Source: a virus (Duplodnaviria; Caudoviricetes). Taken from it: 64,000 nt of DNA. Positions 1,566 to 16,060 of the stretch are shown in pieces (within the stretch, counting starts at the first letter, position 1; every line of letters starts with the position of its first letter). The notes under the pieces were generated by a model. It ran no database searches. It saw nothing but the letters and a program-made list of their open reading frames with translations, and was not told where the DNA came from. The stretch lies in the IMG/VR virus record IMGVR_UViG_3300025314_000006. One strand, given 5' to 3'. Both the position numbers and the translations under genes were made by a program.

Positions 1566-1569
1566 TTAG

Positions 1570-1648
1570 TACCTTCAATAGGATTCGAACCTACATTTTC
1601 AGCTCCGTTACACTTATTGAGTCCGTAGCTCAATGTGGCTATAAAGGC
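1570..1648 (-). tRNA. Atypical tRNA-like element, Arg(ACG) anticodon arm, no normal D-arm
   Basis: Acceptor GCCTTTA/TGAAGGT+A; canonical T-arm GTAGG-TTCGAAT-CCTAT; TTGAG-CTACGGA-CTCAA anticodon arm only 8 nt after the acceptor; 22-nt extra region. Confidence 0.55.
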
Positions 1649-1649
1649 A

Positions 1650-2336
1650 TTATATTAATTCATATCGTTTTGCCCACTTTCTCACCGCAACATCACTAAC
1701 TCCAAATTTTCTACCAAGTGCACAATATGAATTATTTTCTATCATTTCTTTTAATTCTTCTTTAGAGGGTCTGTTTTTTACTTTTCTAAAATTTAATCTA
1801 GGTACATATTTTCTCGTTGTTTTTTTATTTGTTTTATTTTTTTTTGCATTTTTTCTGTCTACGCCAATTTTACCACGGCAATGAGTTTCTAATGTGAAAT
1901 TGCAGTTTGGACATAAAAATCTTAAGTTTTCTAATCTATTATCATTATTTATTCCGTTTTCGTGGTCAATAATTAAACTAATTTTTTTACCTCTCCATAT
2001 TTCTCCTTGTCCACATTCTTTACATTCATATTCTATCATGTTATTATCTCGTATTCTTTTTTTTAAACAAGCCCTTGCAACAGAACTGTTTTCACAAAAA
2101 ATTTCTTCATCACTTTTCCTTAATAATCTGTCTTCATTAAACATTTTTTTAGCAAAATCACTACGGTTTAAAAAATGAGAAGTATCTATTGACCATTTAT
2201 TTAAATTTGTTTTAAGTATTTTATAAGATGAAGAAGAATCGCTTCTTCCAGATTTTACTATAACATCTCTAAATGTGATGCTTTCAGATACTAATTTTTG
2301 TAATTCTTCTTTTGTATATTCTTTATGTTCTTTCAT
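1650..2336 (-). CDS. HNH homing endonuclease
   Basis: CKECG...IDHENGINNDNRLENLRFLCPNC motif; C-terminal HTH; located inside the tRNA operon. Confidence 0.85.
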   Translation of the reverse strand: MKEHKEYTKEELQKLVSESITFRDVIVKSGRSDSSSSYKILKTNLNKWSIDTSHFLNRSDFAKKMFNEDRLLRKSDEEIFCENSSVARACLKKRIRDNNMIEYECKECGQGEIWRGKKISLIIDHENGINNDNRLENLRFLCPNCNFTLETHCRGKIGVDRKNAKKNKTNKKTTRKYVPRLNFRKVKNRPSKEELKEMIENNSYCALGRKFGVSDVAVRKWAKRYELI

Positions 2337-2393
2337 AATTCTAACTTATTTTAATGTAAATAGGTTAGAATTTTTTAATAAAGTAAATAGTTG

Positions 2394-2469
2394 AGGATAA
2401 GAAGAGAATTAAACTCCTGTTAAATATGTTTTGCAGACATATCCCGATTTCAACATTGGGTACTTATCC
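2394..2469 (-). tRNA. tRNA-Cys(GCA)
   Basis: GGATAAG/CTTATCC acceptor, U73; ATATGT-CT GCA AA-ACATAT anticodon arm. Confidence 0.85.
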
Positions 2470-2482
2470 TTGTAAAAATTAA

Positions 2483-2754
2483 AAAAGTAAAATCCTAAGT
2501 ATAGCCGCGATTTTGTTCTATCTCATCATTTATCTGAAGGTATTGCTACCAACTGGAGACTTTAAACGTCTACCACGCACCTACCCGACTATCAACAACG
2601 TAAAGGTTCCCCGTCTACAGTCTGTTTGGCTTGCATCCTATGTTGCGGAAGTACATACGCTATTTGTTATAGCTTCTTCCTCCTTTTAAAAGATGTCGCG
2701 AACTTCCTCTCGATTTTAAGAATCGAGCGATGAGTCCTTCAGGATTTTACTTTT
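2483..2754 (-). ncRNA. rnpB: RNase P RNA (catalytic subunit) with minimised specificity domain
   Basis: 14-bp P1 (AAAAGTAAAATCCT/AGGATTTTACTTTT); P2 CTCATC/GATGAG; P3 CTCGATT/AATCGAG; CR-I GAGGAAGTTCGCGAC pairing (P4) with CR-V ACAAAATCGCGGCTATA; CR-IV AGATAAATGAT; P18-like GGTA-GCAA-TACC. Confidence 0.85.
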
Positions 2755-2758
2755 CTTG

Positions 2759-2830
2759 AGGCTCCACTGACAATCGATGTCAGGACTCAAATTTACAAGA
2801 TTCGTGTTTTGCCACTTAAACTACGGAGCC
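2759..2830 (-). tRNA. tRNA-Thr(TGT)
   Basis: GGCTCCG/TGGAGCC acceptor; loop CT TGT AA; atypical T-loop ATCGATT. Confidence 0.85.
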
Positions 2831-2846
2831 ATTATTTGTTCTTATG

Positions 2847-2920
2847 TGGAATCTACCGGCATTGAACCGGTCTCTCAGGCGTGCAAGGCAAGTGTTCTAA
2901 GCCAAATGAACTAAGACCCC
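2847..2920 (-). tRNA. tRNA-Ala(TGC)
   Basis: GGGGTCT/AGATTCC acceptor with G3:U70; loop CT TGC AC; two mismatches in the anticodon stem. Confidence 0.8.
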
Positions 2921-2958
2921 AATTTAATTTGTTCAAAGTACAAATTATTAAAAACTTT

Positions 2959-3034
2959 TGGCGAGTATGACCGGTCCTGACCCGGCGACCTCCTCATAGA
3001 CAGTGAGGCATTCTTCCAACTGAACTACACACTC
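2959..3034 (-). tRNA. tRNA-Asp(GTC), CCA encoded
   Basis: CCTCA-CT GTC TA-TGAGG; G73; T-loop GTCAGGA. Confidence 0.85.
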
Positions 3035-3046
3035 ATTATTTTTTAA

Positions 3047-3355
3047 AAAAGTAAGACGCCATTTCGCTGATAGCGTTTTTTGTGTTCTGTTTAATGCGCC
3101 AAAGAACATCTGATTATGTTCAGCATTTAGCGTTCATGCTTGGTTATTATAACATACTAACATTCCTAATATTGTCTGATTACCTATTTTGAGTTTGCAT
3201 AGTAGGTTGATTTTTATTTCCAGGGTAAAAATCAACAAACAAACCTAACGTCTGATAAACTTTATTTTTCATCCGGTAAACGTTTTGTACATTGTTTAGT
3301 TCATTAGGCTAAAACAACACGTCTTTTTCACGGACAACATTAGTAACTTACTTTT
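3047..3355 (-). ncRNA. Unassigned structured RNA (~309 nt) between tRNA-Ile and tRNA-Asp
   Basis: 9-bp closing stem AAAAGTAAG/CTTACTTTT; 11-bp hairpin at 3206-3236; several smaller hairpins; four ATCAG motifs; no ORF in the track. Confidence 0.55.
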
Positions 3356-3359
3356 CTTG

Positions 3360-3433
3360 TAGTGCATCTGAGAATTGAACTCAGTACTTCCACGTTATCG
3401 GCGTGGCACTCTGGACCGATGAGTTAATGCACT
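3360..3433 (-). tRNA. tRNA-Ile(GAT)
   Basis: AGTGCAT/ATGCACT acceptor; CCACG-CC GAT AA-CGTGG (C33 instead of U33). Confidence 0.85.
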
Positions 3434-3447
3434 GTTTTTATTTAAAG

Positions 3448-3520
3448 TCTAGGTGGCCTGCTCCGACCAGGCGGTCTCCAGTTCCCAAAACTGGCGGATT
3501 TCCAACTTTCCCACACCTAG
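3448..3520 (-). tRNA. tRNA-Pro(TGG)
   Basis: CTAGGTG/CACCTAG acceptor; CCAGT-TT TGG GA-ACTGG; T-loop GTCGGAG. Confidence 0.85.
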
Positions 3521-3558
3521 AAATTTTGTTTATCTTTCCAAACTGTCTTTTAATAAGA

Positions 3559-3621
3559 GTTCAAGCTCGGTTATCCACCGATTCGAAGGACTGCATTAGC
3601 CTTCTCTGCAGACACTTGAAC
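3559..3621 (-). ncRNA. Compact structured RNA with an H-type pseudoknot
   Basis: GTTCAAG/CTTGAAC closing stem; interleaved CTGCA/TGCAG and GAAGG/CCTTC helices; TCGG-TGGATAA-CCGA hairpin. Confidence 0.5.
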
Positions 3622-3623
3622 AT

Positions 3624-3699
3624 TGGAGCGAAAAACCAGGTTCAAACTGGCGACCCCCAGAGTGGAAATCTGGCGCTCTATCAACTGAGCTATTTTCGC
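3624..3699 (-). tRNA. tRNA-Gly(TCC), CCA encoded
   Basis: GCGAAAA/TTTTCGC acceptor, U73; CCAGA-TT TCC AC-TCTGG. Confidence 0.9.
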
Positions 3700-3788
3700 T
3701 TATGTATATAATTCTCTCAGACCATATTACCAAGATTTACTTTGGACTCACCGTATTTTAAAAGTGAGCAGAATTGTATTTAATTAAA

Positions 3789-4736
3789 TTATTCTAATAA
3801 TAATTCATCAATTGTTAAAATTGAATTTAAATTATCTATTGTTTTTTTAAATATCATTTTAACATTAATGTTGTTTTGTTCTAATACTAAACTCATTTTT
3901 GTTTTATCTATTATTGAATAATATCCTTTAGTTTCTATGTATAAGTTAAAATTTGGCAAATAAAAATCTGGCACATACGTTTTTTCAACACCTTCTTTAA
4001 TATATTGAATATATATTTTTCTAATCCACAATATTTTATTGTCATTTAACCATTGCGACATTTTTAATTCATATTTTCCTCTTAAAGAATATTCTTCACC
4101 AATAATATTTTTTTGTTTATAAAATTTCACATGTTTAAAATTGTTACTTATTTCATTTTCTTCTAACATCTTGGAGTGAGATTTGCTAATTTTCGATTTT
4201 TGTTCAGAAGAAAGTGGCTTTCCTAATTGGTGATGTATTCTCTTACCAGTAGCATACATTTCTTTTTGTTGCTCAGATGCTTTATTTACCCTATTATCAG
4301 TTTCCTTTGTAAGTCCTCTTGACCATCCCATTTTTGATTTAGTCTCTGCATTACTGTATTTTTTATTTTTATATTCAACTCCATCCGGTGTATGCATTTG
4401 AAATATATGACCACATATACCAAGTTTGTGAAATATTAATTCGCAATGAGGACATTTATATTTATCTACATCAACTTTCCAAGATTCATCTACTGTTATT
4501 TGTTTTTTATTAACTGTATTACATTTATTATAATGCCTTTCAAAATTAGAAACAGAAATATTTTTATTACATTTATCACAACATTTTGTGTTTTTAGGTT
4601 TTCCAAGTAAAGAAATACTTAAATTTTTTAATCTTTCTTTTAACTTTGGATTAGATTCACAATTTACTATATGAGCACCAAATTGTTGTGGGATCTCAAA
4701 CTCAAAAGACTCTTTGCAATGCGGACAAGTTTTCAT
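3789..4736 (-). CDS. Putative homing endonuclease (Zn fingers, NUMOD-like region, PD-(D/E)xK C-terminal domain)
   Basis: CPHC zinc motifs; HHQLGKPLSSEQKSKIS NUMOD3-like stretch; YVPDFYLP...YIETKGY nuclease motif. Confidence 0.75.
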   Translation of the reverse strand: MKTCPHCKESFEFEIPQQFGAHIVNCESNPKLKERLKNLSISLLGKPKNTKCCDKCNKNISVSNFERHYNKCNTVNKKQITVDESWKVDVDKYKCPHCELIFHKLGICGHIFQMHTPDGVEYKNKKYSNAETKSKMGWSRGLTKETDNRVNKASEQQKEMYATGKRIHHQLGKPLSSEQKSKISKSHSKMLEENEISNNFKHVKFYKQKNIIGEEYSLRGKYELKMSQWLNDNKILWIRKIYIQYIKEGVEKTYVPDFYLPNFNLYIETKGYYSIIDKTKMSLVLEQNNINVKMIFKKTIDNLNSILTIDELLLE

Positions 4737-4805
4737 ACTTTTTTATTATAAATAGTATAAAAAATTGCAGGTTAGAAAATTGTTAGCACGTTATTGTTTT
4801 TTGAG

Positions 4806-4888
4806 TGGGAGTTGATGGAGACGAGCCACCCGAGTTTTAAAACAACCGATTTACAGTCGGTCCCGCTACCCCTACGGAATAAACTCCC
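4806..4888 (-). tRNA. tRNA-Tyr(GTA)
   Basis: GGGAGTT/AACTCCC acceptor; CCGA-CT GTA AA-TCGG; long variable arm; T-loop CTCGTCT. Confidence 0.85.
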
Positions 4889-4900
4889 ATTTTAATGTTG

Positions 4901-4972
4901 CACAGACGGTTATAATCGAAATAACTACGTGTAGTTTTTGGAGAACTCACCGACACCAAGCCTGTCGTCTGT
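4901..4972 (-). tRNA. tRNA-Trp(CCA)
   Basis: ACAGACG/CGTCTGT acceptor, G73; loop CT CCA AA. Confidence 0.8.
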
Positions 4973-5011
4973 ATTTTATCTATTTTTTAAGCTGTAAGAT
5001 AATTAGCTAAG

Positions 5012-5083
5012 TAGCGAAAACTGGAATCGAACCAATGTAGACACAGCTTATGAGACTGGTGGGAAACCAACATCCTTTTCGCA
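5012..5083 (-). tRNA. tRNA-Met(CAT), initiator-like
   Basis: Loop CT CAT AA; U1:U72 mismatch typical of initiators, but lacks the three G-C anticodon-stem pairs. Confidence 0.75.
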
Positions 5084-5096
5084 ATATATTTTTTTG

Positions 5097-5169
5097 TAGC
5101 CCCTGCCGGTCCTGACCCGACGACTTCATTCATGTAAAAAATGCACTCTACCAACTGAGTTAAGGGGCT
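5097..5169 (-). tRNA. tRNA-Val(TAC)
   Basis: AGCCCCT/AGGGGCT acceptor; CATTT-TT TAC AT-GAATG; T-loop GTCAGGA. Confidence 0.85.
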
Positions 5170-5174
5170 ATTAG

Positions 5175-5248
5175 TAGCATATATCAGAATCAAACTGATG
5201 ACCTTCCTCATATGAAAAGGACGCTCTAATCAACTGAGCTAATATGCT
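5175..5248 (-). tRNA. tRNA with CAT anticodon (elongator Met or lysidine Ile2)
   Basis: AGCATAT/ATATGCT acceptor; TCCTT-TT CAT AT-GAGGA. Confidence 0.8.
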
Positions 5249-5258
5249 ATTTAAAAAG

Positions 5259-5330
5259 AGCGGGTGATGAGGATTAAACTCACGGCCTCATCCTTGGCAA
5301 GGATGCGCTCTATCGCTGAGCTACACCCGC
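5259..5330 (-). tRNA. tRNA-Gly(GCC)
   Basis: GCGGGTG/CACCCGC acceptor, U73; CATCC-TT GCC AA-GGATG. Confidence 0.9.
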
Positions 5331-5403
5331 TTTTTTGATTATCAATATGTCAAATAACTCTGCAAACTTTTAAGTCATTGCTCGACTTGTAAACTTTTTA
5401 AGC

Positions 5404-5435
5404 AACAAAAAACCCGAACCTTTTTTAAGTCCGGG
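5404..5435 (-). terminator. Intrinsic terminator of attenuator 1, upstream of tRNA operon 1
   Basis: CCCGGACTT-AAAA-AAGGTTCGGG followed by TTTTTTGTT. Confidence 0.8.
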
Positions 5436-5475
5436 TGTGTTATGTTGTTTCCCTTTTAAGTTTTTATATCTTACT

Positions 5476-5604
5476 TCATGAAACAAAATGTTTTAACACA
5501 CCCATATTATCGCGGCTATAATCGCCAGGGGTAATACACGCATACCCGACTGTCGGCATGACTGCCCAAATCGTTGTAATTGTTGTATGTGTTAAATTTT
5601 TCAT
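5476..5604 (-). CDS. Attenuator leader peptide 1 (42 aa)
   Basis: MKNLTHTTITTIWAVMPTVGYACITPGDYSRDNMGVLKHFVS*; its GGGTGTGTTA (5494-5503) is complementary to TAACACACCC (5433-5442), which overlaps the terminator 5' arm. Confidence 0.75.
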   Translation of the reverse strand: MKNLTHTTITTIWAVMPTVGYACITPGDYSRDNMGVLKHFVS

Positions 5605-5684
5605 TGAAGATGTTTTCTTTTTAATTAAACTTAAATAGTATAAAAAATTATTTTCTCAAATATTTCTTTCGACCAATTATAACG

Positions 5685-5717
5685 CAAAGATATAATTAAA
5701 GTTTAATAAAAAGCAAA
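5685..5717 (-). promoter_or_regulatory. Bacteroidota primary-sigma promoter for leader 1 and tRNA operon 1
   Basis: TTTG (5714-5717), 21-nt spacer, TATCTTTG (5685-5692); a near-duplicate lies at 14052-14083. Confidence 0.75.
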
Positions 5718-5745
5718 TTTATTTTCATTTATTTTTTATTTAACT

Positions 5746-5810
5746 TGTAAAATCCTGATATTCAGCTAAATAATTTTTTGTAAAATCCTAAACATAATCG
5801 TAAAATCCTG
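5746..5810. repeat. Three direct repeats GTAAAATCCT just upstream of the operon-1 promoter
   Basis: Copies start at 5747, 5780 and 5800. Confidence 0.55.
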
Positions 5811-5916
5811 TCATTGATAATATTAAACAAAAAATCCACAATTTTTTTAAGCAAGGGAGCCAACGAATTTATTCGTTGGAGTATGTCAGTCAATAATATT
5901 TCCTTGCAATTTGTTT

Positions 5917-6120
5917 TTACCAACCTTCTTTAGCAACTCCGGATGCAACTGCAGCTTCTGCGTTAGCAGAGCTCATTATAGCACACATTTTATGTCCTTC
6001 TTTAGTTTCTCCTTTACATACGTATCCACCTTTTGCGTTTTTAGATATGATAGGATTAACGAAAGTTTGTTTGCTTTTTAATTTCATACAATATCCTTCT
6101 AATACGATTAATGTGCTCAT
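5917..6120 (-). CDS. Small DUF5679-like protein, paralog 1
   Basis: GYCMK...KGGYVCKGETKEGHKMCAI; similar to 7515-7715. Confidence 0.55.
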   Translation of the reverse strand: MSTLIVLEGYCMKLKSKQTFVNPIISKNAKGGYVCKGETKEGHKMCAIMSSANAEAAVASGVAKEGW

Positions 6121-6224
6121 GATTTTTAGTTTTAAGTTTTTTATAAATATGAAATATTTTATAAAACAAGTTTTAATATATGTTTATGTTCTAAATTAGC
6201 TTATATTTATATAAAAACAAGCTC

Positions 6225-6395
6225 ATGAAAAATTTAAAAAAAATAATAGAAGAAACAGTAAGTAAAGTTCTGGGTGAAGGCGATTTTTTAACACATCAAA
6301 TAAAAAATTCAATAAGCGTGTTAAATAATGTTTTCAAAGACAACTTAGTTGCAAAGATAAACGAAACAAATGATAAAGATAAACGAAACAAATGA
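6225..6395 (+). CDS. 56-aa N-terminal segment cut off from the downstream ORF by a 22-bp tandem duplication
   Basis: MKNLKKIIEETVSKVLGEGD...; AAAGATAAACGAAACAAATGAT occurs twice (6353-6374, 6375-6396). Confidence 0.6.
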   Translation: MKNLKKIIEETVSKVLGEGDFLTHQIKNSISVLNNVFKDNLVAKINETNDKDKRNK

Positions 6396-6978
6396 TAGTG
6401 TTATTGATGTTTATATTAAGAAATACAATATAAATGCATTAACAAAAATAGATAAAACGATAGAAAATTTAGGATATTTTATTTCTATTTTTAGTATAAA
6501 TGGATTTCAAAAGAAATTTAACAAAGATTCATTTTTTAAAAAAATAAAAGACTTAAAAGAATTAACTCCAATATACCTAAAGCTGGAGAAAAAAATGGAC
6601 TCAAATGAAGATATAGATACAATTATCCCATCTATGTTATATCACATTACACATGAAAGACATCTCGCAAAAATCAAGAAAATAGGTTTAGTTCCAAAAT
6701 CTAAATCTAAAAAATCAGCTCATCCTGAAAGAATATATTTAGCGTGGAATGAAGAATCTGCTATAAAATTAGTAAAAGAATTTTCAGATTTAGAATACGA
6801 ATTTGAACATAATTATGTTTTATTAAAAATTGACACAAGTAAAATTTCTGAGTTTAGACGTGATAAAAATTTCAAATTACATAATGACCCAAACTTTACA
6901 GATGGTTATTTTACATATGATAATATACCTCCTGCTGCAATAAATTTTGAAAATATGAAATTAATAAACCTTGAATAA
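6370..6978 (+). CDS. Tpt1/KptA-like RNA 2'-phosphotransferase or ADP-ribosyltransferase-fold protein
   Basis: LYHIT...IKKIGLVPK...HPERIYLA...VLLKID...DGYFTYDNIPP motifs. Confidence 0.6.
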   Translation: MIKINETNDSVIDVYIKKYNINALTKIDKTIENLGYFISIFSINGFQKKFNKDSFFKKIKDLKELTPIYLKLEKKMDSNEDIDTIIPSMLYHITHERHLAKIKKIGLVPKSKSKKSAHPERIYLAWNEESAIKLVKEFSDLEYEFEHNYVLLKIDTSKISEFRRDKNFKLHNDPNFTDGYFTYDNIPPAAINFENMKLINLE

Positions 6979-7510
6979 TATGAGTTTGTTAGAAAAAATT
7001 AAAATAGAAAGATTTATTTCGGAAGATATTGACGAAGTTAAACAGTTAATTAAAAACATACATTCAAAAATCTGTTTTAATGAAACAAATATTCACATTT
7101 ATAATAATTTAATGTATAAACTTTTTTTTAACGGTTATAGTTTTCTTTTGGATTTTTCATTAAAAGTAACATATAGAAAAAAAATAATAGGAGTTATGTT
7201 ATTATCTGACTTTTCGTTTTATTGGCTATTAGAAACATATAAAGAAGATGACAAAAACATAAGCAAAAAAATAAAAAAATATAAGAACAAAGAAGGTTTA
7301 AGGAGTGTTTTTTTTGGAATTGATAGGAAATATCAAAAAAAAGGATTAGGCTCTAAAATGATTGAATATATACAAAAAAACTATAAGCAGTTTGATTATT
7401 TGTGGGGAATTCAACATAAAGAGATTTCAAATATGGAATTTTTCTTAAAAAGAAGAAAAGTTGTTGCAGAAATAGGAAATTCCGTATATACTGTGCAGGA
7501 TTTGAAATAA
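6971..7510 (+). CDS. GNAT-family acetyltransferase
   Basis: FGIDRKYQKKGLGSKMI acetyl-CoA-binding motif A. Confidence 0.75.
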   Translation: MNNMSLLEKIKIERFISEDIDEVKQLIKNIHSKICFNETNIHIYNNLMYKLFFNGYSFLLDFSLKVTYRKKIIGVMLLSDFSFYWLLETYKEDDKNISKKIKKYKNKEGLRSVFFGIDRKYQKKGLGSKMIEYIQKNYKQFDYLWGIQHKEISNMEFFLKRRKVVAEIGNSVYTVQDLK

Positions 7511-7514
7511 AAGC

Positions 7515-7715
7515 TTAAAACCCTTCTTTAGTAACTCCAGATGCTACGGCAGCTTCTGCGTTGGCTTTACTCATTAATAGACTCATCTTATGTCCATCTT
7601 TACTTTCGCCCTTTGCAATGTACCCACCCTTTTTAGTTAAGCTAATAACAGCATTAACCATTACTCCCTTTGATTTTGTCTTAAGACAATAAGCCTCTAA
7701 TACTACTTTTTCCAT
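7515..7715 (-). CDS. Small DUF5679-like protein, paralog 2
   Basis: AYCLK...KGGYIAKGESKDGHKM...ANAEAAVASGV, shared with 5917-6120. Confidence 0.55.
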   Translation of the reverse strand: MEKVVLEAYCLKTKSKGVMVNAVISLTKKGGYIAKGESKDGHKMSLLMSKANAEAAVASGVTKEGF

Positions 7716-7753
7716 TTTTTTTGGTTTTATAGTAAATATTAAAAATTTTTATT

Positions 7754-8101
7754 TTAAGTCGGTGATGTTATTAATTGAAATTTAGTAGGATGCGACAATC
7801 TATAATCAACTTGTCTTTCATCAACATATTCTCGATAATTAACATAACCTTTAACATATGGAGTTACGCGAGCATCGAAAAAAATAACATCTCCGTTATT
7901 TAACGCTCCTAATTTCTCAAATCCTTTTGTTTTGTTAAACCACAAATGGTCAGTAACAATTTTATCAGACTTATCCTTAATATCTTTTAAGAGTATTGTT
8001 TCTACAGGATATCCATGATAATTCTTCTTTGTTCCAAATTTCTCAAATATTCCACTAAATCTGTCCCGTATATTTTCTATTTTTTCTAAATCTTTTCTCA
8101 T
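7754..8101 (-). CDS. Hypothetical protein
   Basis: 115-aa ORF whose start overlaps the nadD stop. Confidence 0.65.
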   Translation of the reverse strand: MRKDLEKIENIRDRFSGIFEKFGTKKNYHGYPVETILLKDIKDKSDKIVTDHLWFNKTKGFEKLGALNNGDVIFFDARVTPYVKGYVNYREYVDERQVDYRLSHPTKFQLITSPT

Positions 8102-8670
8102 TGATAAAACCCTTTTCTTTTTATATAATTAGCAACTTGCGGTGCTAAAAAATCTTTCACATCTCTATTTTCCTTTATCTCGTTTCGGATAAATGTGGAA
8201 GACATTTCAATTAAATTAACATCAAACATTTTTACTTTTGGATGTAAAATTAGATTACCGCCATCGCTGGAGCTACGTGAATATACATAAATTTGATATT
8301 CTTCAAGTATTTTTTGATAATCTTTCCACTTGTGTAAGTTTTCTAAATTATCAGTTCCCATTATTATAACAAATTCATTTTCTTTAAATGTTTCTTTTAA
8401 TAAATTGAGCGTATCTATAGTATACGAAGGTTTTGATAAATTAAATTCAATATCACTGGCTCTCATATGTTCATTATCAATTAATGCCATATTAACCATT
8501 TTTAACCTTTCTTTTTCTGATAGTAGAGAATTTTTATCCTTGAGAGGATTGTGAGGAGATATTATAAACCACACACATTCCAATTCGGTATGTTCAAGCA
8601 TGTAAGACGCCAATATTGTGTGACCGTTGTGGATTGGATTAAAACTACCGAAGAATAAACCTATTTTCAT
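8098..8670 (-). CDS. nadD: Nicotinate/nicotinamide mononucleotide adenylyltransferase
   Basis: KIGLFFGSFNPIHNGH (HxGH), SPHNPLK, PSYTIDTL, IMGTDN, MSSTFIR; likely start is ATG 8670. Confidence 0.92.
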   Translation of the reverse strand: MKIGLFFGSFNPIHNGHTILASYMLEHTELECVWFIISPHNPLKDKNSLLSEKERLKMVNMALIDNEHMRASDIEFNLSKPSYTIDTLNLLKETFKENEFVIIMGTDNLENLHKWKDYQKILEEYQIYVYSRSSSDGGNLILHPKVKMFDVNLIEMSSTFIRNEIKENRDVKDFLAPQVANYIKRKGFYQ

Positions 8671-8752
8671 ATGTGATATTATTAAACGAAGATAATCATT
8701 ATAATGTTGCAACTAACTTTTTTAAACTATTTATTGAAAAAAGAAATATAAA

Positions 8753-10126
8753 ATGAATAATAAAGAACTAAGAAAATCGATAAGAAGGATTTTAAAGGAA
8801 AATCTTGAAAATTCTGATTGGGTGAATGCCAGTGATGCTCAAAAAGCTGCAATGCAAGATATAGACTCAGAAGATGAATTTGAACACTTAGGAACTAATA
8901 GGTTTGAAAAAGATTTTGATGTTGAAGATTTTCTATATGATTTAGAAGCTCAAAAAAATATGTCTGAGCCATCTGTAAAAAGATTAGAAAAACAAATTGG
9001 GCAATTAAAAAGATTTGGAAAGGGTTCTTTGAATGAATTATCGCCAGAAATAAGACAATCCGCACTTAAAAAAGCTGTTGATTATATTGAACAACCTGGA
9101 GATACCTATCATAAAGACCCGCTCCAATATATTAAGAAAAAAAACCAAGCAAATTCATTTATTTCTCATGTTAATCCTGAGTTAAAAAAAGAAGCTATGG
9201 AAATAGCAAAAATGATAGATGTAAATTGTGAAAGTCGTATAGAAAAAGAAGCGGTAGGAAGTACACTTGAACCAAATGTTGTATTATATTTTGGTCAAAA
9301 CATTGCAGATTTAAGTAATCAAATACTTAAAATTGCCATTAAAAAAGATAATCATACATGGGAAACCAAAAAATTTATTCCTGAAAATATTCAAAGAAGA
9401 TTGGCTAATTTTATAAAAAAGATTCAAACAAAAGAAATATCTAGTCCAGTTAAACAATTGAATGAGAGATTTCTTGGTGGATGGCATTATTTCGCAACTC
9501 CAGAAGGTAAAGAAGAATATATTAAAGACCTCGAGTCTAAAAAGATTAATGCAAAAGGAGAAGAATTAGAGCAAATTGAAAAAGAACTTAAAAAGTTAAA
9601 ATCAATAAAACCAAAATCCTTAAAAGAAGAAACATCAAAACTTGACAAGCCAAAAGATTCTGCAGGAAATTCAATATCATCCGGAGTGAGAGTTGAAGAT
9701 TTAGAGTCGGGTAGTGCTGGACGAGTTGAGAGATTTGGTATTGACGACAAAGGACAATTAACAGTTCATGTTGCTTGGATAACAAAATATGGACAGATAG
9801 CTCCAAAGTCCATTGTTTATCCCAAAAATATAATTGTTAAAGATTCTGCAAAAAAGATAACAGACGAAGGAATTAAAGATACTTTAAAAAATATTTATAA
9901 AGAATTGAATCCTATTGAAAAATGGAAACAAATGAAAGAAAATCGTAAAAAGCTCGAAAAAGAAGTTAGTGATTTACGAAGAGAAGTTTCTGAAAAGGAA
10001 AAAGAATTAGAAAAAATAGTGAATAGTAATCATATTAAAGCTGATGTAAGTAATGATGTTGACGAAGGAATTGGAGCTGGATTATCACTTCCAATAAAAA
10101 AAGGAGCCGGAAGCAGATTTAAATAA
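8753..10126 (+). CDS. Hypothetical protein, putative protease-processed virion polyprotein
   Basis: N-terminal LRKSIRRILKE; internal SLNE, QLNE and SLKEE linkers; TATTTAT at 8728-8734. Confidence 0.6.
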   Translation: MNNKELRKSIRRILKENLENSDWVNASDAQKAAMQDIDSEDEFEHLGTNRFEKDFDVEDFLYDLEAQKNMSEPSVKRLEKQIGQLKRFGKGSLNELSPEIRQSALKKAVDYIEQPGDTYHKDPLQYIKKKNQANSFISHVNPELKKEAMEIAKMIDVNCESRIEKEAVGSTLEPNVVLYFGQNIADLSNQILKIAIKKDNHTWETKKFIPENIQRRLANFIKKIQTKEISSPVKQLNERFLGGWHYFATPEGKEEYIKDLESKKINAKGEELEQIEKELKKLKSIKPKSLKEETSKLDKPKDSAGNSISSGVRVEDLESGSAGRVERFGIDDKGQLTVHVAWITKYGQIAPKSIVYPKNIIVKDSAKKITDEGIKDTLKNIYKELNPIEKWKQMKENRKKLEKEVSDLRREVSEKEKELEKIVNSNHIKADVSNDVDEGIGAGLSLPIKKGAGSRFK

Positions 10127-10133
10127 AACTATT

Positions 10134-11147
10134 TTGGAAAATAAGTTAAGAAAATATATTCAAAAAATCCTTCAAGAATCTTTAAATACAGAAGACATTC
10201 CTGAAGACATCCCCATTAAAAAAGATTTAAAATTCACTGAGACCTCAAGAGGTTCGCATCATGGCCAGCAGGATTTAACAGCTTATGCCACAATAGAGGG
10301 AATAGTAGTTGGCTATGTTGAATATTCTATATTTCAGAACGAAATCCACATAGAAATGATTGAAGTTGTTGAAGAACAAAAAAGACAAGGAATAGCAACA
10401 AAATTATTTCATTTTATAAGACTTAAAAATTCTGGTATGAAAATTATTCCAGGATATTCAACCGAAGAAGGAAGTAAATTTTATAATGCTTATAAAAGCA
10501 AAAAACTAAAAGAAGATATAAATGTTCCTATAAATGTTGGAGATACCGTTCTTGGTGGCCGTTTTAAAAATAAAAAAATTATTATTAAAGATATAGGAAA
10601 GTCAGATAAGGGCGACATTACAATTAATGACAAGCCTCTTTTAAAAGTTAGGATTCCAAAGAAAATAAATGAAGAAAAATTGACATGTTTATATATTCAT
10701 GGTTTAGGAGCTGAAATATCTGATGATATTAAAAATTCTCTTTCCAAATACAATCTCATATATCCCAAAATAAACTACGACAAAACAACAAAACCATATT
10801 ATCAATGTTTAGAAATATTAAATAAAGATAAGGTGGATTTTATAATAGGTCATTCTATAGGTGGAGTTATGGGTTATTATTTAGCTAAAGAAACAAATAT
10901 TCCAGCTTTATTATTATGTCCGGCATTTGGAGATGAATATAAAGTTCTCACAAGTAAGTTAGTTAAAGATAATAACCCAAAAATAGTTGTTATCATAGGA
11001 AAAAAAGATGATGAAGTTGATAATAAAAAAGTTAAATCCACTTTAGAAAATCAACCCAATTGTGTTATTAAAGAATTAAATATCGGACATGATATTACAG
11101 AAAAAAATCTGATTTTATTTGCTGATGGTTTTGTTGAAAATTTATAA
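10134..11147 (+). CDS. Multidomain protein: GNAT, small module, alpha/beta-hydrolase (YqiA-like)
   Basis: KRQGIATKL GNAT motif; YIHGLG and GHSIGG nucleophile elbow; domains separated by KLKED and KINEE. Confidence 0.75.
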   Translation: MENKLRKYIQKILQESLNTEDIPEDIPIKKDLKFTETSRGSHHGQQDLTAYATIEGIVVGYVEYSIFQNEIHIEMIEVVEEQKRQGIATKLFHFIRLKNSGMKIIPGYSTEEGSKFYNAYKSKKLKEDINVPINVGDTVLGGRFKNKKIIIKDIGKSDKGDITINDKPLLKVRIPKKINEEKLTCLYIHGLGAEISDDIKNSLSKYNLIYPKINYDKTTKPYYQCLEILNKDKVDFIIGHSIGGVMGYYLAKETNIPALLLCPAFGDEYKVLTSKLVKDNNPKIVVIIGKKDDEVDNKKVKSTLENQPNCVIKELNIGHDITEKNLILFADGFVENL

Positions 11148-11174
11148 TTGAAATTATTATTTTTTAATATAAAG

Positions 11175-11247
11175 TGCTTCCAGTTGGACTTGAACCAACG
11201 ACCCGAAAATTAAGAATTTCCTACTCTACCATCTGAGCTATGAAAGC
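11175..11247 (-). tRNA. tRNA-Lys(CTT)
   Basis: GCTTTCA/TGGAAGC acceptor; loop TT CTT AA. Confidence 0.85.
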
Positions 11248-11335
11248 AATAATTTATAATGTATTATAGATATATGTTGAGTAAAATCCACAGAATGTTC
11301 TATTTTATGGATTGTGCTCAACAAATATGTAATTG

Positions 11336-11409
11336 TGTGTCCGACAAGATTTGAACTTGTGACCTCCGCATTAAAAGTGCGGTATTCTAACCAGCTGAAT
11401 TACGAACAC
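11336..11409 (-). tRNA. tRNA-Lys(TTT)
   Basis: GTGTTCG/CGGACAC acceptor; CCGCA-CT TTT AA-TGCGG. Confidence 0.9.
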
Positions 11410-11413
11410 ATAG

Positions 11414-11500
11414 TGTACCCAGAAAGATTCGAACTTTCAACGGCCTTTCGGCTCCCCACAGGGTAAAAACCTGTTGCTCTACCAATTGAGCCATGGGTAC
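11414..11500 (-). tRNA. tRNA-Lys(TTT) with a long variable arm
   Basis: GTACCCA/TGGGTAC acceptor; ACAGG-TT TTT AC-CCTGT; 19-nt variable region with a GCC-GAAA-GGC hairpin. Confidence 0.8.
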
Positions 11501-11504
11501 AAAT

Positions 11505-11536
11505 AAAAAAGCCTGAATCTACACAGAGACTCAGGC
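11505..11536 (-). terminator. Intrinsic terminator of attenuator 3, 4 nt before the first tRNA-Lys
   Basis: 10-bp stem GCCTGAGTCT/AGATTCAGGC followed by TTTTTT. Confidence 0.85.
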
Positions 11537-11556
11537 TTTTTGGACTTATAAAAAAG

Positions 11557-11622
11557 TCAATGAGCTATCGTCCCCGGAGACCAGGGTTTCTTAGATTTTT
11601 TTATTTTGATTATTGTTAACAT
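11557..11622 (-). CDS. Attenuator leader peptide 3 (21 aa, Lys-rich)
   Basis: MLTIIKIKKSKKPWSPGTIAH*; five Lys codons in seven (four AAA, one AAG). Confidence 0.75.
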   Translation of the reverse strand: MLTIIKIKKSKKPWSPGTIAH

Positions 11623-11733
11623 TTTGTTTATTTTTTTAAATTAAAAAGAGCCCACACTCAACTGGTGGCTAATTTTTATGAACGAGTATTACCCAAGTTC
11701 TGTCATCCACTATGACAAATTTCTATTGTTATT

Positions 11734-12086
11734 TTAACCTTGAATATCTTGACATTCCGTGATGTTATAGGTCTTTATAAAATCCTTACCATCAGTTATT
11801 ATTAAATCCAAGTTACTTGAATAGTACCCGTTATTAGAACCGTGTCCAGCTATTTTTACAGAATGTCCTTGTATTGGAATTAATTCAATTCCGTAATCAG
11901 GAATTCTTTTGAAGAAATCATCATTTGTTAAATCAAATTCTAATCCTTCAAATCAGCGATTGTTAAATCATCTAATGTTAATGAATGTGATTCACAACAA
12001 TCTGATTCATGATTTGAATATAACTTTACTTCATTTTCAAATTCAATTGCATCTGAGTCAACTTTTACTACTTTTAATTTGTTCAT
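11734..12086 (-). pseudogene. Conserved-looking phage hypothetical gene with a 1-nt frameshift near 11948
   Basis: First frame ends ...ADLKD* at 11940; the shifted frame continues EGLEFDLTNDDFFKRIPDYGIELIP...GHGSNNGYYSSNLDL...* to 11734. Confidence 0.6.
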
Positions 12087-12102
12087 TTTATTTATGTTTT
12101 TG

Positions 12103-12176
12103 GGTGCTATATCGGCTACGACCCGATTACCTTCTGTACCACAAACAGACACTCTACCAATTGAGCTAATAACACC
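12103..12176 (-). tRNA. tRNA-His(GTG)
   Basis: Encoded G-1:C73 pair; TCTGT-TT GTG GT-ACAGA; T-loop GTCGTAG. Confidence 0.85.
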
Positions 12177-12189
12177 ATATTAAATTTGT

Positions 12190-12960
12190 TTAAAATACAA
12201 ATTTTAAGACTTTAATATTATTTACTTTTTCACTATATCCAAAATTTCTAATTTCATCATGTATTTCTATGTGACAATTTGCACAAACCATAATACATTT
12301 ATCAACTTCTACTTTTAATCTTTCAAAACCATAAGATTTGCCACCAATAGTAAAATCTTTTTCACTTGGATTTGTATGATGAAATTGTAAAACTGATGTT
12401 GATTTATTATATCCACAACATTCACATTTCCATCCTTTATATTCAATTAATCTAATTTTACTTCTTTTTCTCCAATCTATAACAGCCTGACTTTTGGTTT
12501 TAGTTTTTTGTCTTTTTTTATTTGTTTTAATCAAATCATCAGAAATGTAATTTCTAATTGTTGTCCTATCTACCTTAAAATAAGCGGCTGTTTTTCTTAA
12601 AGACTTACTTTCTATATAAAAATTAACAACTTCTATTTCAATAAGTTCTTTTTTCTTAAATGTACCACTTGATTTATTTAATCCATACAAATTACATATT
12701 TTAATTAACTTATCTTCTCCAATGTCCAAAATTGACCTTATTTCGTCATAGCTTTTCAATTCTCTTCTGTAAGCAATTATTTTGTTTATAACTTCATCAG
12801 TTATTCCAATTAAAAAACTGTTTCTTACTCCGCCAAGTCCAACATTATTTATGTGATAAGACACAGTGCTTTTTGAACACTTTAATTGTTCAACTATTTC
12901 TTTTATAGTTGAGCCTTTTTCTCTTAAAGAGATAATTTTATTTTTCAAACCTTTATCCAT
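12190..12960 (-). CDS. HNH homing endonuclease with N-terminal HTH repeats
   Basis: KCECCGY...LQFHH...CIMVCANCHIEIH; likely start MDKGLK at 12960. Confidence 0.85.
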   Translation of the reverse strand: MDKGLKNKIISLREKGSTIKEIVEQLKCSKSTVSYHINNVGLGGVRNSFLIGITDEVINKIIAYRRELKSYDEIRSILDIGEDKLIKICNLYGLNKSSGTFKKKELIEIEVVNFYIESKSLRKTAAYFKVDRTTIRNYISDDLIKTNKKRQKTKTKSQAVIDWRKRSKIRLIEYKGWKCECCGYNKSTSVLQFHHTNPSEKDFTIGGKSYGFERLKVEVDKCIMVCANCHIEIHDEIRNFGYSEKVNNIKVLKFVF

Positions 12961-13031
12961 ATTATTAACTTTATTTGTTAATAAATATGGGATAAAATTC
13001 AAAAAAACAAAATTTATTTCAAAGAACGTTG

Positions 13032-13103
13032 CGGACCCGCCTGGACTTGAACCAGAAAACGCAGATTAACAATCTGAAGTGATACCAATTTCACCACAGG
13101 TCC
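13032..13103 (-). tRNA. tRNA-Asn(GTT)
   Basis: GGACCTG/CGGGTCC acceptor, G73; loop TT GTT AA. Confidence 0.85.
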
Positions 13104-13109
13104 CAATAT

Positions 13110-13430
13110 TTATTTTTTAATTTCTTCTTTAGTAATAGAATCACCAACCTCTATTACTTTGCCAAAAACTTTTTTTGTCCAACCATTTATTCCTCCTTTA
13201 TTATTTCCTATTAAACAACCTTTTTGTGCATTAATTGCTTTTACTAAATGTGTGTAGAAATTGCCGTGCACTTTCGCATAGACTATATCTCCTACTTTAA
13301 CTTCATCTATTGTAATTGGGGCAATTTTATGTTCTTGTCCCGACTTAATTAAAGGAACCATTGAGTTTCCTTTTTCACTGGTGACGAAAGTCTCACCGTT
13401 TTGTAATCTTTCTAATTTATAATTTCTCAT
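13110..13430 (-). CDS. S24/S26 peptidase-like protein
   Basis: KGNSMVPLI...VGDIVY motif. Confidence 0.6.
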   Translation of the reverse strand: MRNYKLERLQNGETFVTSEKGNSMVPLIKSGQEHKIAPITIDEVKVGDIVYAKVHGNFYTHLVKAINAQKGCLIGNNKGGINGWTKKVFGKVIEVGDSITKEEIKK

Positions 13431-13446
13431 TTTTTATTATTTGTTT

Positions 13447-13535
13447 TGGCGGAAAACGGGCAAATCGAATACCATTCAAATTAACGAACCTCTCGCTTAG
13501 CAGGCGGAGACAACTCCCTGGTTGTTTCGTTTTCC
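13447..13535 (-). tRNA. tRNA-Ser(GCT), CCA encoded
   Basis: Loop CT GCT AA; long variable arm; G73. Confidence 0.85.
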
Positions 13536-13562
13536 ATTTATTATTTCAAAGAACATTTTTTG

Positions 13563-13648
13563 CAGAGGCTAAGAGAGTTCAACTCTTACAACCTTTTCAA
13601 GTCCTAGCTATTTTCAAGATAGTGTACCTCCGTCAACTGGGAGCCTCT
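13563..13648 (-). tRNA. tRNA-Ser(TGA)
   Basis: AGAGGCT/AGCCTCT acceptor, G73; CTAT-CT TGA AA-ATAG; long variable arm. Confidence 0.85.
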
Positions 13649-13727
13649 ATGTTTGCCTATTAACTCTATCACTCACCTAAACGGTGGATTACAGAACTTC
13701 GGCAGGATTTTATTCCTGTTCAGTTAG

Positions 13728-13804
13728 TGGAGATTGCCAGAATTGAACTGGCGTTAATTTCACGGTTCTTCAAACCGCAGCTAGACCGTCTCAGCTAAAT
13801 CTCC
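13728..13804 (-). tRNA. tRNA-Phe(GAA)
   Basis: GGAGATT/AATCTCC acceptor; GCGGT-TT GAA GA-ACCGT. Confidence 0.85.
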
Positions 13805-13825
13805 ATTATTTTCAAAAAACGTTAT

Positions 13826-13860
13826 AAAACAAAAAACCCGAACTCTTTTGTAAGTCCGGG
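13826..13860 (-). terminator. Intrinsic terminator of attenuator 2
   Basis: CCCGGACT-TACAAAAG-AGTTCGGG followed by TTTTTTGTTTT; near-identical to 5404-5435. Confidence 0.8.
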
Positions 13861-13889
13861 TGTGTTTATGTTGTTTTAATTTTAATCTT

Positions 13890-13979
13890 TTACGATTCAA
13901 AAGGACAATACACACCCGCTCGGCTTTTATTACTAAAACTCGATTTGTTAAAATGCTTATGTGTATTATTTGTTGTCAT
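13890..13979 (-). CDS. Attenuator leader peptide 2 (29 aa)
   Basis: MTTNNTHKHFNKSSFSNKSRAGVYCPFES*; CGGGTGTGT (13910-13918) is complementary to ACACACCCG (13857-13865). Confidence 0.75.
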   Translation of the reverse strand: MTTNNTHKHFNKSSFSNKSRAGVYCPFES

Positions 13980-14051
13980 TTTGTATTCTTAATATTCTTT
14001 AAATAGTATAAAAAATTATTTTTCTAAAAATTCTTATTATCAATTATAACG

Positions 14052-14083
14052 CAAAGATATAATTAAAGTTTCAAAAAAGCAAA
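14052..14083 (-). promoter_or_regulatory. Bacteroidota primary-sigma promoter for leader 2 and tRNA operon 2
   Basis: TTTG, 20-nt spacer, TATCTTTG. Confidence 0.75.
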
Positions 14084-14121
14084 TTTATTTTGATTTATTT
14101 TTTATTTCATTAAAAAAGGTA

Positions 14122-14401
14122 TCTCGGGTTTTCTGATAATTTGCCGTTGTCATACTGATTAGAGTCGAACTAATCGTGTTGCGTTTCTACATTTCTACAA
14201 TTTACATTTTTACAAAGTCGGCCTTTTTGATTCTATTGCCTTTTCCATAAGGATGTCTTGTGAGACTTGTTTTTTGTATTTATCTCCTTTCGAAGTTAAT
14301 TACTATGAACGTTTTTTAGAAACTTTCTTGAAACTATCTGGTGTATCGTCACCTGAACCTATCCGGTAAATGTTGCCGGAACCATCCATACTGGCCCGAG
14401 A
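14122..14401 (-). ncRNA. Candidate ~280-nt structured RNA directly downstream of the coiled-coil gene
   Basis: 7-bp closing stem TCTCGGG/CCCGAGA; CCGG/CCGG and GGTG/CACC hairpins; T-arm-like GATTAG-TTCGACT-CTAATC (14157-14175); four TGTARA repeats. Confidence 0.5.
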
Positions 14402-14407
14402 ATGTTT

Positions 14408-14944
14408 TTATTCAGAACTCATAAGAGATTCTAAATCTACATGAGAAAAAGAAAGCTCTATTGTTTTTTGATTTAATATTTCAATTTCATTTTGAGTGGT
14501 TCTGTACTTTGTTTTGAAGTGTGAAATTTTACTTTTCACTTCCGTAGAAGTAACAGCCGGAATATATTCAACTTTTATTGATTTTCTTGTTCCGTTTCCA
14601 AGGTTCTCAAATTTTGTTGTTTTTGTTGGTTTAGTGCGAGCTAATGCATTTTCATAAATTGATAATAGCAATTTGTTATTATGCATAGAGCGAACTTTAT
14701 TGTCTACTTGATTTTCTTTGTTAAAAGAAGAAATCTTTGAATTTATTTCTTCAGAAAATCCAAGGGCTTTTTCCAAACGAGAAACAGCTTCTCCAAATTT
14801 TTTAATATCTGCCTCATCAGTAATGACCTGGTCATCTTCTTTAGTTGAACCAAGTGGAGCTCTAAAAGTTTCACTTTGAATAGATTGAACTGATTTAGAA
14901 ATTTCATTTTTAAGTCTTAGTGCTTCTGATACAGTAATGTTCAT
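14408..14944 (-). CDS. Coiled-coil protein (DIP1984/DUF6847-like)
   Basis: N-terminal SEALRLKNEI and C-terminal QNEIEILNQKT pattern; own promoter TTTG-19-TACATTTG at 14979-15009. Confidence 0.5.
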   Translation of the reverse strand: MNITVSEALRLKNEISKSVQSIQSETFRAPLGSTKEDDQVITDEADIKKFGEAVSRLEKALGFSEEINSKISSFNKENQVDNKVRSMHNNKLLLSIYENALARTKPTKTTKFENLGNGTRKSIKVEYIPAVTSTEVKSKISHFKTKYRTTQNEIEILNQKTIELSFSHVDLESLMSSE

Positions 14945-15010
14945 GATGATATATTTTAATTATTTATTGTTTGGGATACAAATGTAATAATAAATTTAAT
15001 ACAAACAAAT

Positions 15011-15160
15011 TTATTTACATTTTTCTTCTTTAGATAACTCTTCTATAATAACAGAAAGTTGTCCACATGCGGCACCGTTGTTAATTTCTGATTGAGTTGC
15101 CACTGCTACGGCATATTCAAAACCGCTTTCTTCTAATTGTTTTTTTATTTCTTCGTTCAT
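15011..15160 (-). CDS. 49-aa protein matching the C-terminal fragment of an RlmN-like enzyme
   Basis: MNEEIKKQLEESGFEYAVAVATQSEINNGAACGQLSVIIEELSKEEKCK*; contains the RlmN/Cfr AACGQL motif; absent from the ORF track. Confidence 0.7.
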   Translation of the reverse strand: MNEEIKKQLEESGFEYAVAVATQSEINNGAACGQLSVIIEELSKEEKCK

Positions 15161-15172
15161 TTTTTTGTTTTT

Positions 15173-16060
15173 TTAAATTAAAGTTAAACCGTTAAATCCA
15201 AATTTTAAATTCTTACCATTAAATACAACTAAATTAGAAGGATGTTCTGGCTTTAAAACGCATCTTGAGTATGCTTTTACAACCTCTATATCTAATTTTT
15301 CTGGTATATATAAATAGTTATTACATTTACAACTATCAAAATAATTCCATTGTTTTGATAATAACATTCTTTTCGTTTTAAAATCAAAACTCGAAAAGTC
15401 TATAAAATTTTCTTTACAAAAGTCATTAATTTTCATCAAAGAAACAAATCCAACATCATATATTTTTAAAAAATTTGCAAATTCTAAAAATTCGTATATT
15501 TCTTTCTCAGAATCAATATTGTTTTTAATTAGATTACAACTTAAATGTAGTAAGTTTTTGTTAATTAATTTTTCTTGAGCTCTTTTTAACTCTACGGTAG
15601 ATAATGCCTTAAAACCTAAAATTTCATTATTCTTAACATCTTCATAGTGATGTCTACTAATAGAAATGCTATCAAAATTATTTATTTCGCCATTCTCGAA
15701 TAAATTTAATAATTGAAATCCATTTGTGTTCATTACAAGAAATGTTTCCGGAAAGTAAAATCGAATTAAATCAATTATTTTATAAAGTTTTTTTAGTTCT
15801 AAAGTTGGTTCACCTCCAGTGATTGATATTTTTTTAACTTCAATTTCTTCTTTTAATGAAATTAAAGTTTGTTCAAATTTTTCAAAATCAAAAGCGTTTG
15901 CTACATTTTTAAACTCACAAAAAGAACAATTTGCGTTACATCCATTTAATTGAACATATAAATTAATATACGGTTCCGTTATTGGAACCATTTCACAGCC
16001 ATTTAATGAACAGTTATGAGATTTTAAATCTATAGTTTTCCCAAAAATAGTTGTTTGCAT
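15173..16060 (-). CDS. Radical SAM protein
   Basis: CNANCSFC (CxxxCxxC), ITGGEPT, NTNG. Confidence 0.9.
   Translation of the reverse strand: MQTTIFGKTIDLKSHNCSLNGCEMVPITEPYINLYVQLNGCNANCSFCEFKNVANAFDFEKFEQTLISLKEEIEVKKISITGGEPTLELKKLYKIIDLIRFYFPETFLVMNTNGFQLLNLFENGEINNFDSISISRHHYEDVKNNEILGFKALSTVELKRAQEKLINKNLLHLSCNLIKNNIDSEKEIYEFLEFANFLKIYDVGFVSLMKINDFCKENFIDFSSFDFKTKRMLLSKQWNYFDSCKCNNYLYIPEKLDIEVVKAYSRCVLKPEHPSNLVVFNGKNLKFGFNGLTLI

Follow-up and report, generated by a model that had tools for sequence, protein, structure and literature searches.

Attenuation by a translated leader peptide is the textbook mode of control of amino acid biosynthesis, and some enterobacterial leaders are multivalent: next to the trp, his, pheA and leu attenuators there are those of ilvGMEDA, which responds to Ile, Leu and Val, and of thr, which responds to Thr and Ile. 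The E. coli pheST attenuator (with its pheM leader) and the T-boxes of Firmicutes respond to the charging or decoding status of a specific tRNA and thereby control components of the translation apparatus. An attenuator-like leader may also be present in front of the E. coli pheU and pheV tRNA-Phe genes. The attenuators of enterobacterial amino acid operons are treated in PMC1183508 and PMC3082878. Full-text literature searches returned no description of leader-peptide attenuation of tRNA genes; for the locus analyzed here, a known mechanism would act on a new target class, tRNA genes.

The locus lies in a 64,000-nt stretch of viral DNA (hereafter, the window) that encodes phage proteins (ribonucleotide reductase, a helicase, DNA polymerase, tape-measure-like proteins and an HNH endonuclease) and contains two tRNA arrays, both on the minus strand. 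DNA of the window is present in metagenomes from soil, sediment and groundwater. The phages most closely related to it are very large ones, namely a 518,809-bp contig (L182/L204), LR745206.1 (634,780 bp), LR756502.1 (642,428 bp) and LR756500.1 (462,018 bp); LR745206 and LR756502 have been called megaphages (PMC9723777). When positions 11000-16000 of the window were compared with GenBank phages by megablast, a single match of 75 nt, in the HNH gene, was obtained.

The analysis confirmed that one of the two arrays is preceded by a real feature with attenuator elements, hereafter attenuator 2. It occupies the minus strand from 14083 to 13826 and consists, in this order, of a promoter-like block, a 29-codon ORF and three hairpins, followed by tRNA-Phe. 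The elements are as follows.

14052-14083, minus strand: promoter-like site of the Bacteroidota type, TTTG (14083-14080)-N20-TATCTTTG (14059-14052), a pattern match (repeat families D3 and D5)
14000-14014, minus strand: 15-nt motif TTTTTATACTATTTA, 20 nt 5' of the leader ATG
13890-13979, minus strand: leader ORF of 29 codons plus TAA, encoding MTTNNTHKHFNKSSFSNKSRAGVYCPFES
13923-13970, minus strand: sensor run, codons 4-19, 15 of the 16 being Asn, His, Lys, Phe or Ser codons
13959-13967, minus strand: region 1, AAUACACAU, codons 5-7, which pairs with region 2 as an anti-antiterminator in the minimum-energy fold
13910-13918, minus strand: region 2, CGGGUGUGU (CGGGTGTGT), codons 21-23, inside the ORF
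13857-13865, minus strand: region 3, ACACACCCG, overlapping the first 4-5 nt of the terminator 5' arm
13826-13861, minus strand: intrinsic terminator with a 10-bp stem (13861-13836, ACCCGGACTT..AGTTCGGGT) and the tail TTTTTGTTTT (13835-13826)

As listed, the promoter-like site is followed by a short ORF that has a start codon, and an intrinsic terminator separates this leader from the tRNA genes that it would regulate. The T-run ends 21 nt before tRNA-Phe, a gap with no room for a promoter of its own, and tRNA-Phe should therefore be made only by readthrough. The promoter-like site falls inside a block (14103-13980) common to attenuator 2 and attenuator 1, the element that fronts the other tRNA array (5740-5400, minus strand). 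This similarity and the consensus motif suggest that 14083-14052 works as a promoter; the motif is not enriched in the window (eight sites found versus six expected). The 15-nt motif TTTTTATACTATTTA has three exact copies in the window (4749-4763, 5632-5646 and 14000-14014), which are all on the minus strand and followed by an ATG at a distance of 13-28 nt, two of them preceding leader ORFs and one preceding a 315-aa ORF at 4736-3789; a copy with one mismatch is found 19 nt before an ORF at 8753 on the plus strand. The motif may be a phage-specific (or second) promoter or an initiation element.

The genes downstream of the terminator are listed below, together with a secondary attenuator located among them.

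13727-13804, minus strand: tRNA-Phe(GAA), the first regulated gene, 78 nt (53 bits)
13562-13648, minus strand: tRNA-Ser(UGA)-like gene, 87 nt, with the loop CUUGAAA, a homologue of Ser(tga) at 2522-2608 of L094
13447-13535, minus strand: tRNA-Ser(GCU), found by ARAGORN at the relaxed threshold only
13031-13103, minus strand: tRNA-Asn(GUU), found by default ARAGORN and Rfam
12102-12175, minus strand: tRNA-His(GUG), found by default ARAGORN and Rfam
11506-11622, minus strand: attenuator 3 (secondary), with leader MLTIIKIKKSKKPWSPGTIAH (11622-11557) and terminator (11541-11506), gating the Lys genes
11174-11500, minus strand: three tRNA-Lys genes (UUU, UUU and CUU), found by default ARAGORN and Rfam

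The identity of the Ser(UGA)-like gene was established by reading the anticodon loop by eye and by homology to L094, the loop being set in the wrong register by ARAGORN. In leader 3, five codons in a row of seven are Lys codons, and 5 nt separate the end of its terminator from the first Lys gene; the Lys tRNAs are served by Lys codons of two leaders, three in leader 2 and five in leader 3.

Several other properties of the two arrays were recorded. Several tRNAs are atypical: Trp, Tyr and a third Met (4805-5083), Ser(GCU) and the Ser(UGA)-like one were detected by relaxed ARAGORN only, one tRNA-Lys(UUU) (11413-11500, minus strand) has 88 nt and an extended variable arm, and tRNA-Phe has 78 nt. 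Protein ORFs lie between the gated tRNA genes (12190-13002 and 13110-13430, minus strand); the operon contains an HNH endonuclease of 270 aa (PHROG 2255, E = 2e-28) and a 106-aa ORF without a family match. Between tRNA-Phe and the Ser(UGA)-like gene lies a spacer of about 80 nt (13650-13726, minus strand) that is strongly conserved relative to L094:2441-2521, the conserved stretches including ACTGAACA..TAAAATC.TGCCGAAGTTCTGT and GAGTTAATAGGCAAA. Operon 1 contains, between tRNA-Thr and tRNA-Cys, a 262-nt match to class A RNase P RNA (2486-2747, minus strand; 39 bits, E = 2e-9, far under the gathering score of 100) that may be a reduced phage-encoded RNase P RNA. A weak tRNA-like match with an uncertain anticodon (34.6 bits; His by relaxed ARAGORN) is found at the end of this operon (1570-1648, minus strand). 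A possible fourth terminator before tRNA-Asp (about 3080-3053) was without a convincing leader ORF.

Comparison of the two large attenuators showed that the promoter and 5'UTR are identical at 110 of 131 positions (84%), and region 3 with the terminator at 40 of 42 (95%), versus 41 of 77 (53%) for the leader ORF. A sequence-only reading of this DNA had described the promoter region, the antiterminator pair and the terminator as near-copies of attenuator 1, with conserved RNA mechanics and a swapped sensor peptide. Both statements hold: the elements are found on the minus strand at the positions given above, and since the flanks are 84-95% identical and the ORF only 53%, the RNA mechanics has been kept and the sensor exchanged. 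The same reading had the sensing codons match a Phe/Ser/Asn/His/Lys operon and include three AGY Ser codons as well as TCG, and this is borne out at the level of individual codons, the Ser codons of the leader being TCG, AGT, AGT, AGC and TCG. When matches were counted with strict wobble rules, 17 of the 28 codons of the whole ORF were read by downstream anticodons, compared with a background of 0.29 in the long ORFs of the window (binomial p = 5e-4), and the two shifted frames gave 5/28 and 7/28. Phe, His, Asn, Ser and Lys account for 17/28 residues of leader 2 versus 9/41 of leader 1 (Fisher p = 0.002), and the amino acid set of operon 1 shows the converse enrichment, of leader 1 over leader 2. 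Over 16 leaders, the match was 45% in frame versus 20% out of frame (p = 5e-21); this contrast places the signal in the codons and not in base composition. Leader 2 is therefore enriched in codons cognate to the tRNAs behind it, as cross-pairing permutations also support. The 11 codons for which the operon has no tRNA (three Thr, and one each of Arg, Ala, Gly, Val, Tyr, Cys, Pro and Glu) fall mostly in structural parts.

Hairpins 1:2, 2:3 and 3:4 (the terminator) of attenuator 2 are mutually exclusive, with energies of -16.4, -20.1 and -14.2 kcal/mol, respectively. Shuffled versions of the region as a whole fold far less well (z = -5.2 for the actual sequence; 0/200 shuffles as good). Hairpin 1:2 is formed by AAUACACAU and GUGUGUAUU around region 2. 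In the antiterminator, the strand GGGUGUGU faces its partner ACACACCC; the complementary 8-mers GGGTGTGT (13917-13910) and ACACACCC (13865-13858) occur as a pair once in 64 kb and in 0/100 shuffles. Since 2:3 takes CCCG from the terminator, antiterminator and terminator exclude each other. The ranking of energies is the classical one: 1:2 together with 3:4 is more stable than 2:3, and 2:3 is more stable than 3:4 alone.

The effect of ribosome position was modelled with a stalled-ribosome footprint around the A site, under our own steric assumption that only RNA 3' of the ribosome folds. With the A site at codons 2-17, the modelled probability of the terminator was about 0-0.2; from codon 18 onward it rose to about 1, so that the predicted switch falls where the sensor run ends. 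The same behaviour was obtained for attenuator 1 and for L094, and less cleanly for L182. With no ribosome present, the terminator probability was 0.98 in the window, 0.95 in L182 and 0.05 in L094; hairpin 1:2 is not uniformly conserved, and the equilibrium model gives readthrough for L094 without a ribosome. The antiterminators of LR745206.1 do not reach the stability of the terminators at equilibrium, and a kinetic co-transcriptional mechanism must be assumed there, as for the trp attenuator. An earlier equilibrium model, in which regions 1 and 2 could pair across a stalled ribosome, gave termination at codons 13-17; it was replaced by the steric model.

Orthologues of attenuator 2 were found at L094:2113-2267, L182:3593-3745 and LR745206.1 342380-342540 (cluster A). 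An 18-mer of the leader matched only L094 and the 518,809-bp contig, and the exact 14-mer ACACACCCGGACTT hit 102 loci in viral contigs, of which only L047 and L094 were genuine. About 11 genuine loci were present among 92 matches of a metagenome pattern scan that demanded ACACACCCGG, and the scan is uninformative on covariation in helix 2:3 because this sequence was required.

The leaders of L094 (2113-2202) and L182 (3593-3682) are exactly 29 codons long, like that of the window, with the ATG and the ORF length conserved, and precede Phe, Phe, Ser, Ser, Asn, Asn and His genes. Both keep the core HxHFNxSxFSNKSRxGV; six variable sensor positions swap only N, K, S and T, and the residues after region 2 vary freely (A/L/M, Y/N/L, F/C/L, S/I/R) around an invariant GGGTGTG. 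Judged from the sequences, this pattern is what would be expected of a codon sensor under RNA constraint and not of a folded peptide. The L182 terminator has another stem, CCCTGGC with GTCAGGG, which still folds (-9.5 kcal/mol), and the terminator 3' arms of the three close orthologues are out of register in the alignment. In cluster A of LR745206.1, the first seven codons are shared except for one Asn-to-Ser change, the leader has a Trp codon, and the operon has two Trp tRNA genes in addition to His, Phe and Lys; Asn codons are present and an Asn tRNA is absent from the cluster. The antiterminator also differs there, GUUCGG pairing with CCGAAC of its own terminator. Leader 2 orthologues of unrelated composition would have spoken against a codon sensor; instead, L094, L182 and LR745206.1 keep Phe, Ser, Asn, His and Lys, and their composition tracks the tRNA genes. 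Just 5' of the attenuator 2 promoter, L094 (1962-2048) and L182 (3410-3527) contain a tRNA-like gene that has an insertion and to which no anticodon could be assigned; it was returned as "???" by ARAGORN in L094 and was read by eye in L182.

The arrangement recurs in other megaphages. LR745206.1 has seven terminators directly in front of tRNA groups, each with a leader. For six of them, the dominant residues of the leader and the tRNAs behind it are as follows.

Leader with S and R: Arg and three Ser tRNAs
Leader with Y and E: four Glu and two Tyr tRNAs
Leader with I (ATA codons), G and A: Ile(UAU), Gly, Met, Gly and Ala tRNAs
Leader with N, L, T, M, V, I and R: an array of 21 genes for exactly those amino acids
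Leader with P, Q and D: Pro and Asp tRNAs
Leader with seven Q: three Gln tRNAs

Each of the seven leaders fits its own tRNA set better than those of the others, and among the 5040 possible pairings the actual one alone ranks first. Complementarity of a leader to the 5' arm of its own terminator exceeds that of non-cognate pairings (5 of 200,000 permutations as good). In L147 and L167, the leader holds all nine amino acids of an Ala, Tyr, Gly, Trp, Pro, Ile, Arg, Thr and Cys array; in LR756500.1 (L206), the leader in front of His, Glu, Val, Trp and Leu genes abounds in H, E, V, W and L, and LR756502.1 (L205) carries an orthologue of the N/L/T/M/V/I/R leader. The terminators end 9-25 nt before the first tRNA, and at such distances these tRNAs, too, should be made only by readthrough. 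Primary leaders carry codons for tRNAs located behind secondary attenuators, Lys in the window and Ser and Gln in LR745206.1; polling of secondary-gated tRNAs in this way fits one promoter per cluster with nested gates. At two LR745206.1 loci, L105:780-871 and L108:740-837, tRNA genes directly follow the same promoter without a leader ORF or terminator. The L105 gene, which also shares the 5'UTR block, is tRNA-Met(CAU), and that of L108 is a tRNA without an assignment, with a tRNA-Met located beyond it; should these be initiator tRNAs, their supply could not be sensed through stalling in elongation.

With the anatomy, the alternative pairings, the frame-specific codon match, and the conservation and co-variation with tRNA content in relatives all observed, we consider it likely that attenuator 2 gates the phage tRNA operon behind it by ribosome-mediated (leader-peptide) transcription attenuation. 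From the sequence, we infer that the promoter is used, that the leader is translated, that transcription and translation are coupled, and that the switch responds to tRNA supply. RNA polymerase of the host type would start near 14083-14052 and transcribe the 29-codon leader, whose codons 4-19 would gauge how fast Asn, His, Lys, Phe and Ser codons are decoded, i.e., those of the downstream tRNAs. A ribosome stalled in the sensor run would leave region 2 (CGGGUGUGU) free to pair with region 3 (ACACACCCG), removing CCCG of the terminator 5' arm, and polymerase would continue through the tRNA-Phe, both Ser, the Asn and the His genes as far as the Lys attenuator. A ribosome moving fast through region 2 to the stop codon would allow the terminator to form, with the transcript ending near 13830, and if no ribosome were present, pairing of region 1 with region 2 would likewise lead to termination. 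The net logic would be negative feedback on tRNA supply, with slow codon reading causing tRNAs to be made; the phage probably makes the gated tRNAs only when ribosomes slow on their codons. The natural trigger could be a mismatch of codon usage with the host or loss of host tRNAs during infection.

The same anatomy might answer to another signal, amino acid starvation or general translation capacity (ribosome speed or coupling) instead of the supply of specific tRNAs. Any slow-down within codons 2-17 gives the antiterminator in our model, and the leaders do contain some non-cognate codons; yet such a signal would need no operon-specific codon sets, and each leader matches its own tRNAs best, down to the codon, as with the ATA codons in front of tRNA-Ile(UAU) at B2 of LR745206.1. 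We regard this explanation as unlikely. Still less likely, in our estimate, is a function of the ORF product as a micro-protein, or of the terminated transcript (about 200 nt) as a small RNA, the tRNAs being supplied by constitutive leak through the terminator. In Sinorhizobium, activity in trans is reported both for terminated attenuator RNAs and for leader peptides (PMC7298713, PMC7968998), which provides a precedent, and the leader peptide is partly conserved. However, its substitutions preserve the set of sensed residues (K/N/S/T swaps) and are not chemically conservative, the C-terminal residues vary around an invariant RNA motif, paralogous leaders share the RNA switch without peptide similarity, and composition follows tRNA content over the 16 leaders.

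An ordinary terminator of an upstream unit next to an accidental ORF would also have to be considered in AT-rich DNA, where Asn, Lys, Phe and Ser codons are common and the background for the set is 0.29-0.32. The frame specificity of the enrichment, a leader-operon pairing that is the best of 5040, an antiterminator pair absent from all shuffles, and the conservation of the element in several distant megaphages argue otherwise, and this explanation is strongly disfavoured and very improbable. We give an equally small chance to a translation-independent switch, in which a protein or an uncharged tRNA binds the leader RNA, as in TRAP or T-box regulation: what speaks for it is the general precedent of tRNA-sensing leaders, nothing direct, while the dependence on reading frame indicates decoding, relatives retain the ATG and the length of the ORF, and a cmscan search of positions 1-15000 with Rfam leader (His, Leu, Thr, Trp, etc.), T-box and riboswitch families returned none at 13826-14083, either at gathering thresholds or at E values up to 5.

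If attenuator 2 is a leader-peptide attenuator as proposed, phage tRNA genes would be regulated by demand and not be constitutive, which bears on why large phages carry tRNA arrays (compensation for codon usage versus replacement of lost host tRNAs). The leaders would then provide a sequence-readable prediction of the codons that limit phage translation, and the element would be a compact, reprogrammable sensor of codon speed that accommodates 5 to 11 amino acids in about 150 nt. For megaphages in general, we lean, by a modest degree, towards a modular hierarchical codon-demand network that covers nearly all tRNA genes, in which the leader of each tRNA sub-operon would poll precisely those codons that its own tRNAs read and be rewritten with its tRNA content, and only those tRNAs that are short in the host pool would be topped up. 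The shortfall in the host would arise through codon usage mismatch or through tRNA depletion in infection, including that caused by tRNA-cleaving defence systems.

Attenuator 2 shares with the enterobacterial attenuators a short, presumably translated leader that is rich in regulatory codons and can serve several amino acids, as well as the alternative pairings 1:2, 2:3 and 3:4 with an intrinsic terminator, the position of the ribosome being predicted to pick the hairpin. In contrast to them, it would regulate tRNA genes and not biosynthetic enzymes, and the number of amino acids polled is five for leader 2 and 11 for the leader of attenuator 1. The ORF extends across region 2, its stop lying eight codons past that region, and the system is phage-borne, modular and nested, with the secondary Lys attenuator inside the operon. 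pheST and the T-boxes differ from it in regulating aminoacyl-tRNA synthetase or amino acid genes, and T-boxes, in addition, bind tRNA directly and need no translation. With attenuator 1 and with its orthologues, attenuator 2 has in common the promoter/5'UTR block, the logic of region 2, region 3 and terminator, and the place directly before a tRNA array, whereas the sensor codons are rewritten to match the tRNAs of each operon.
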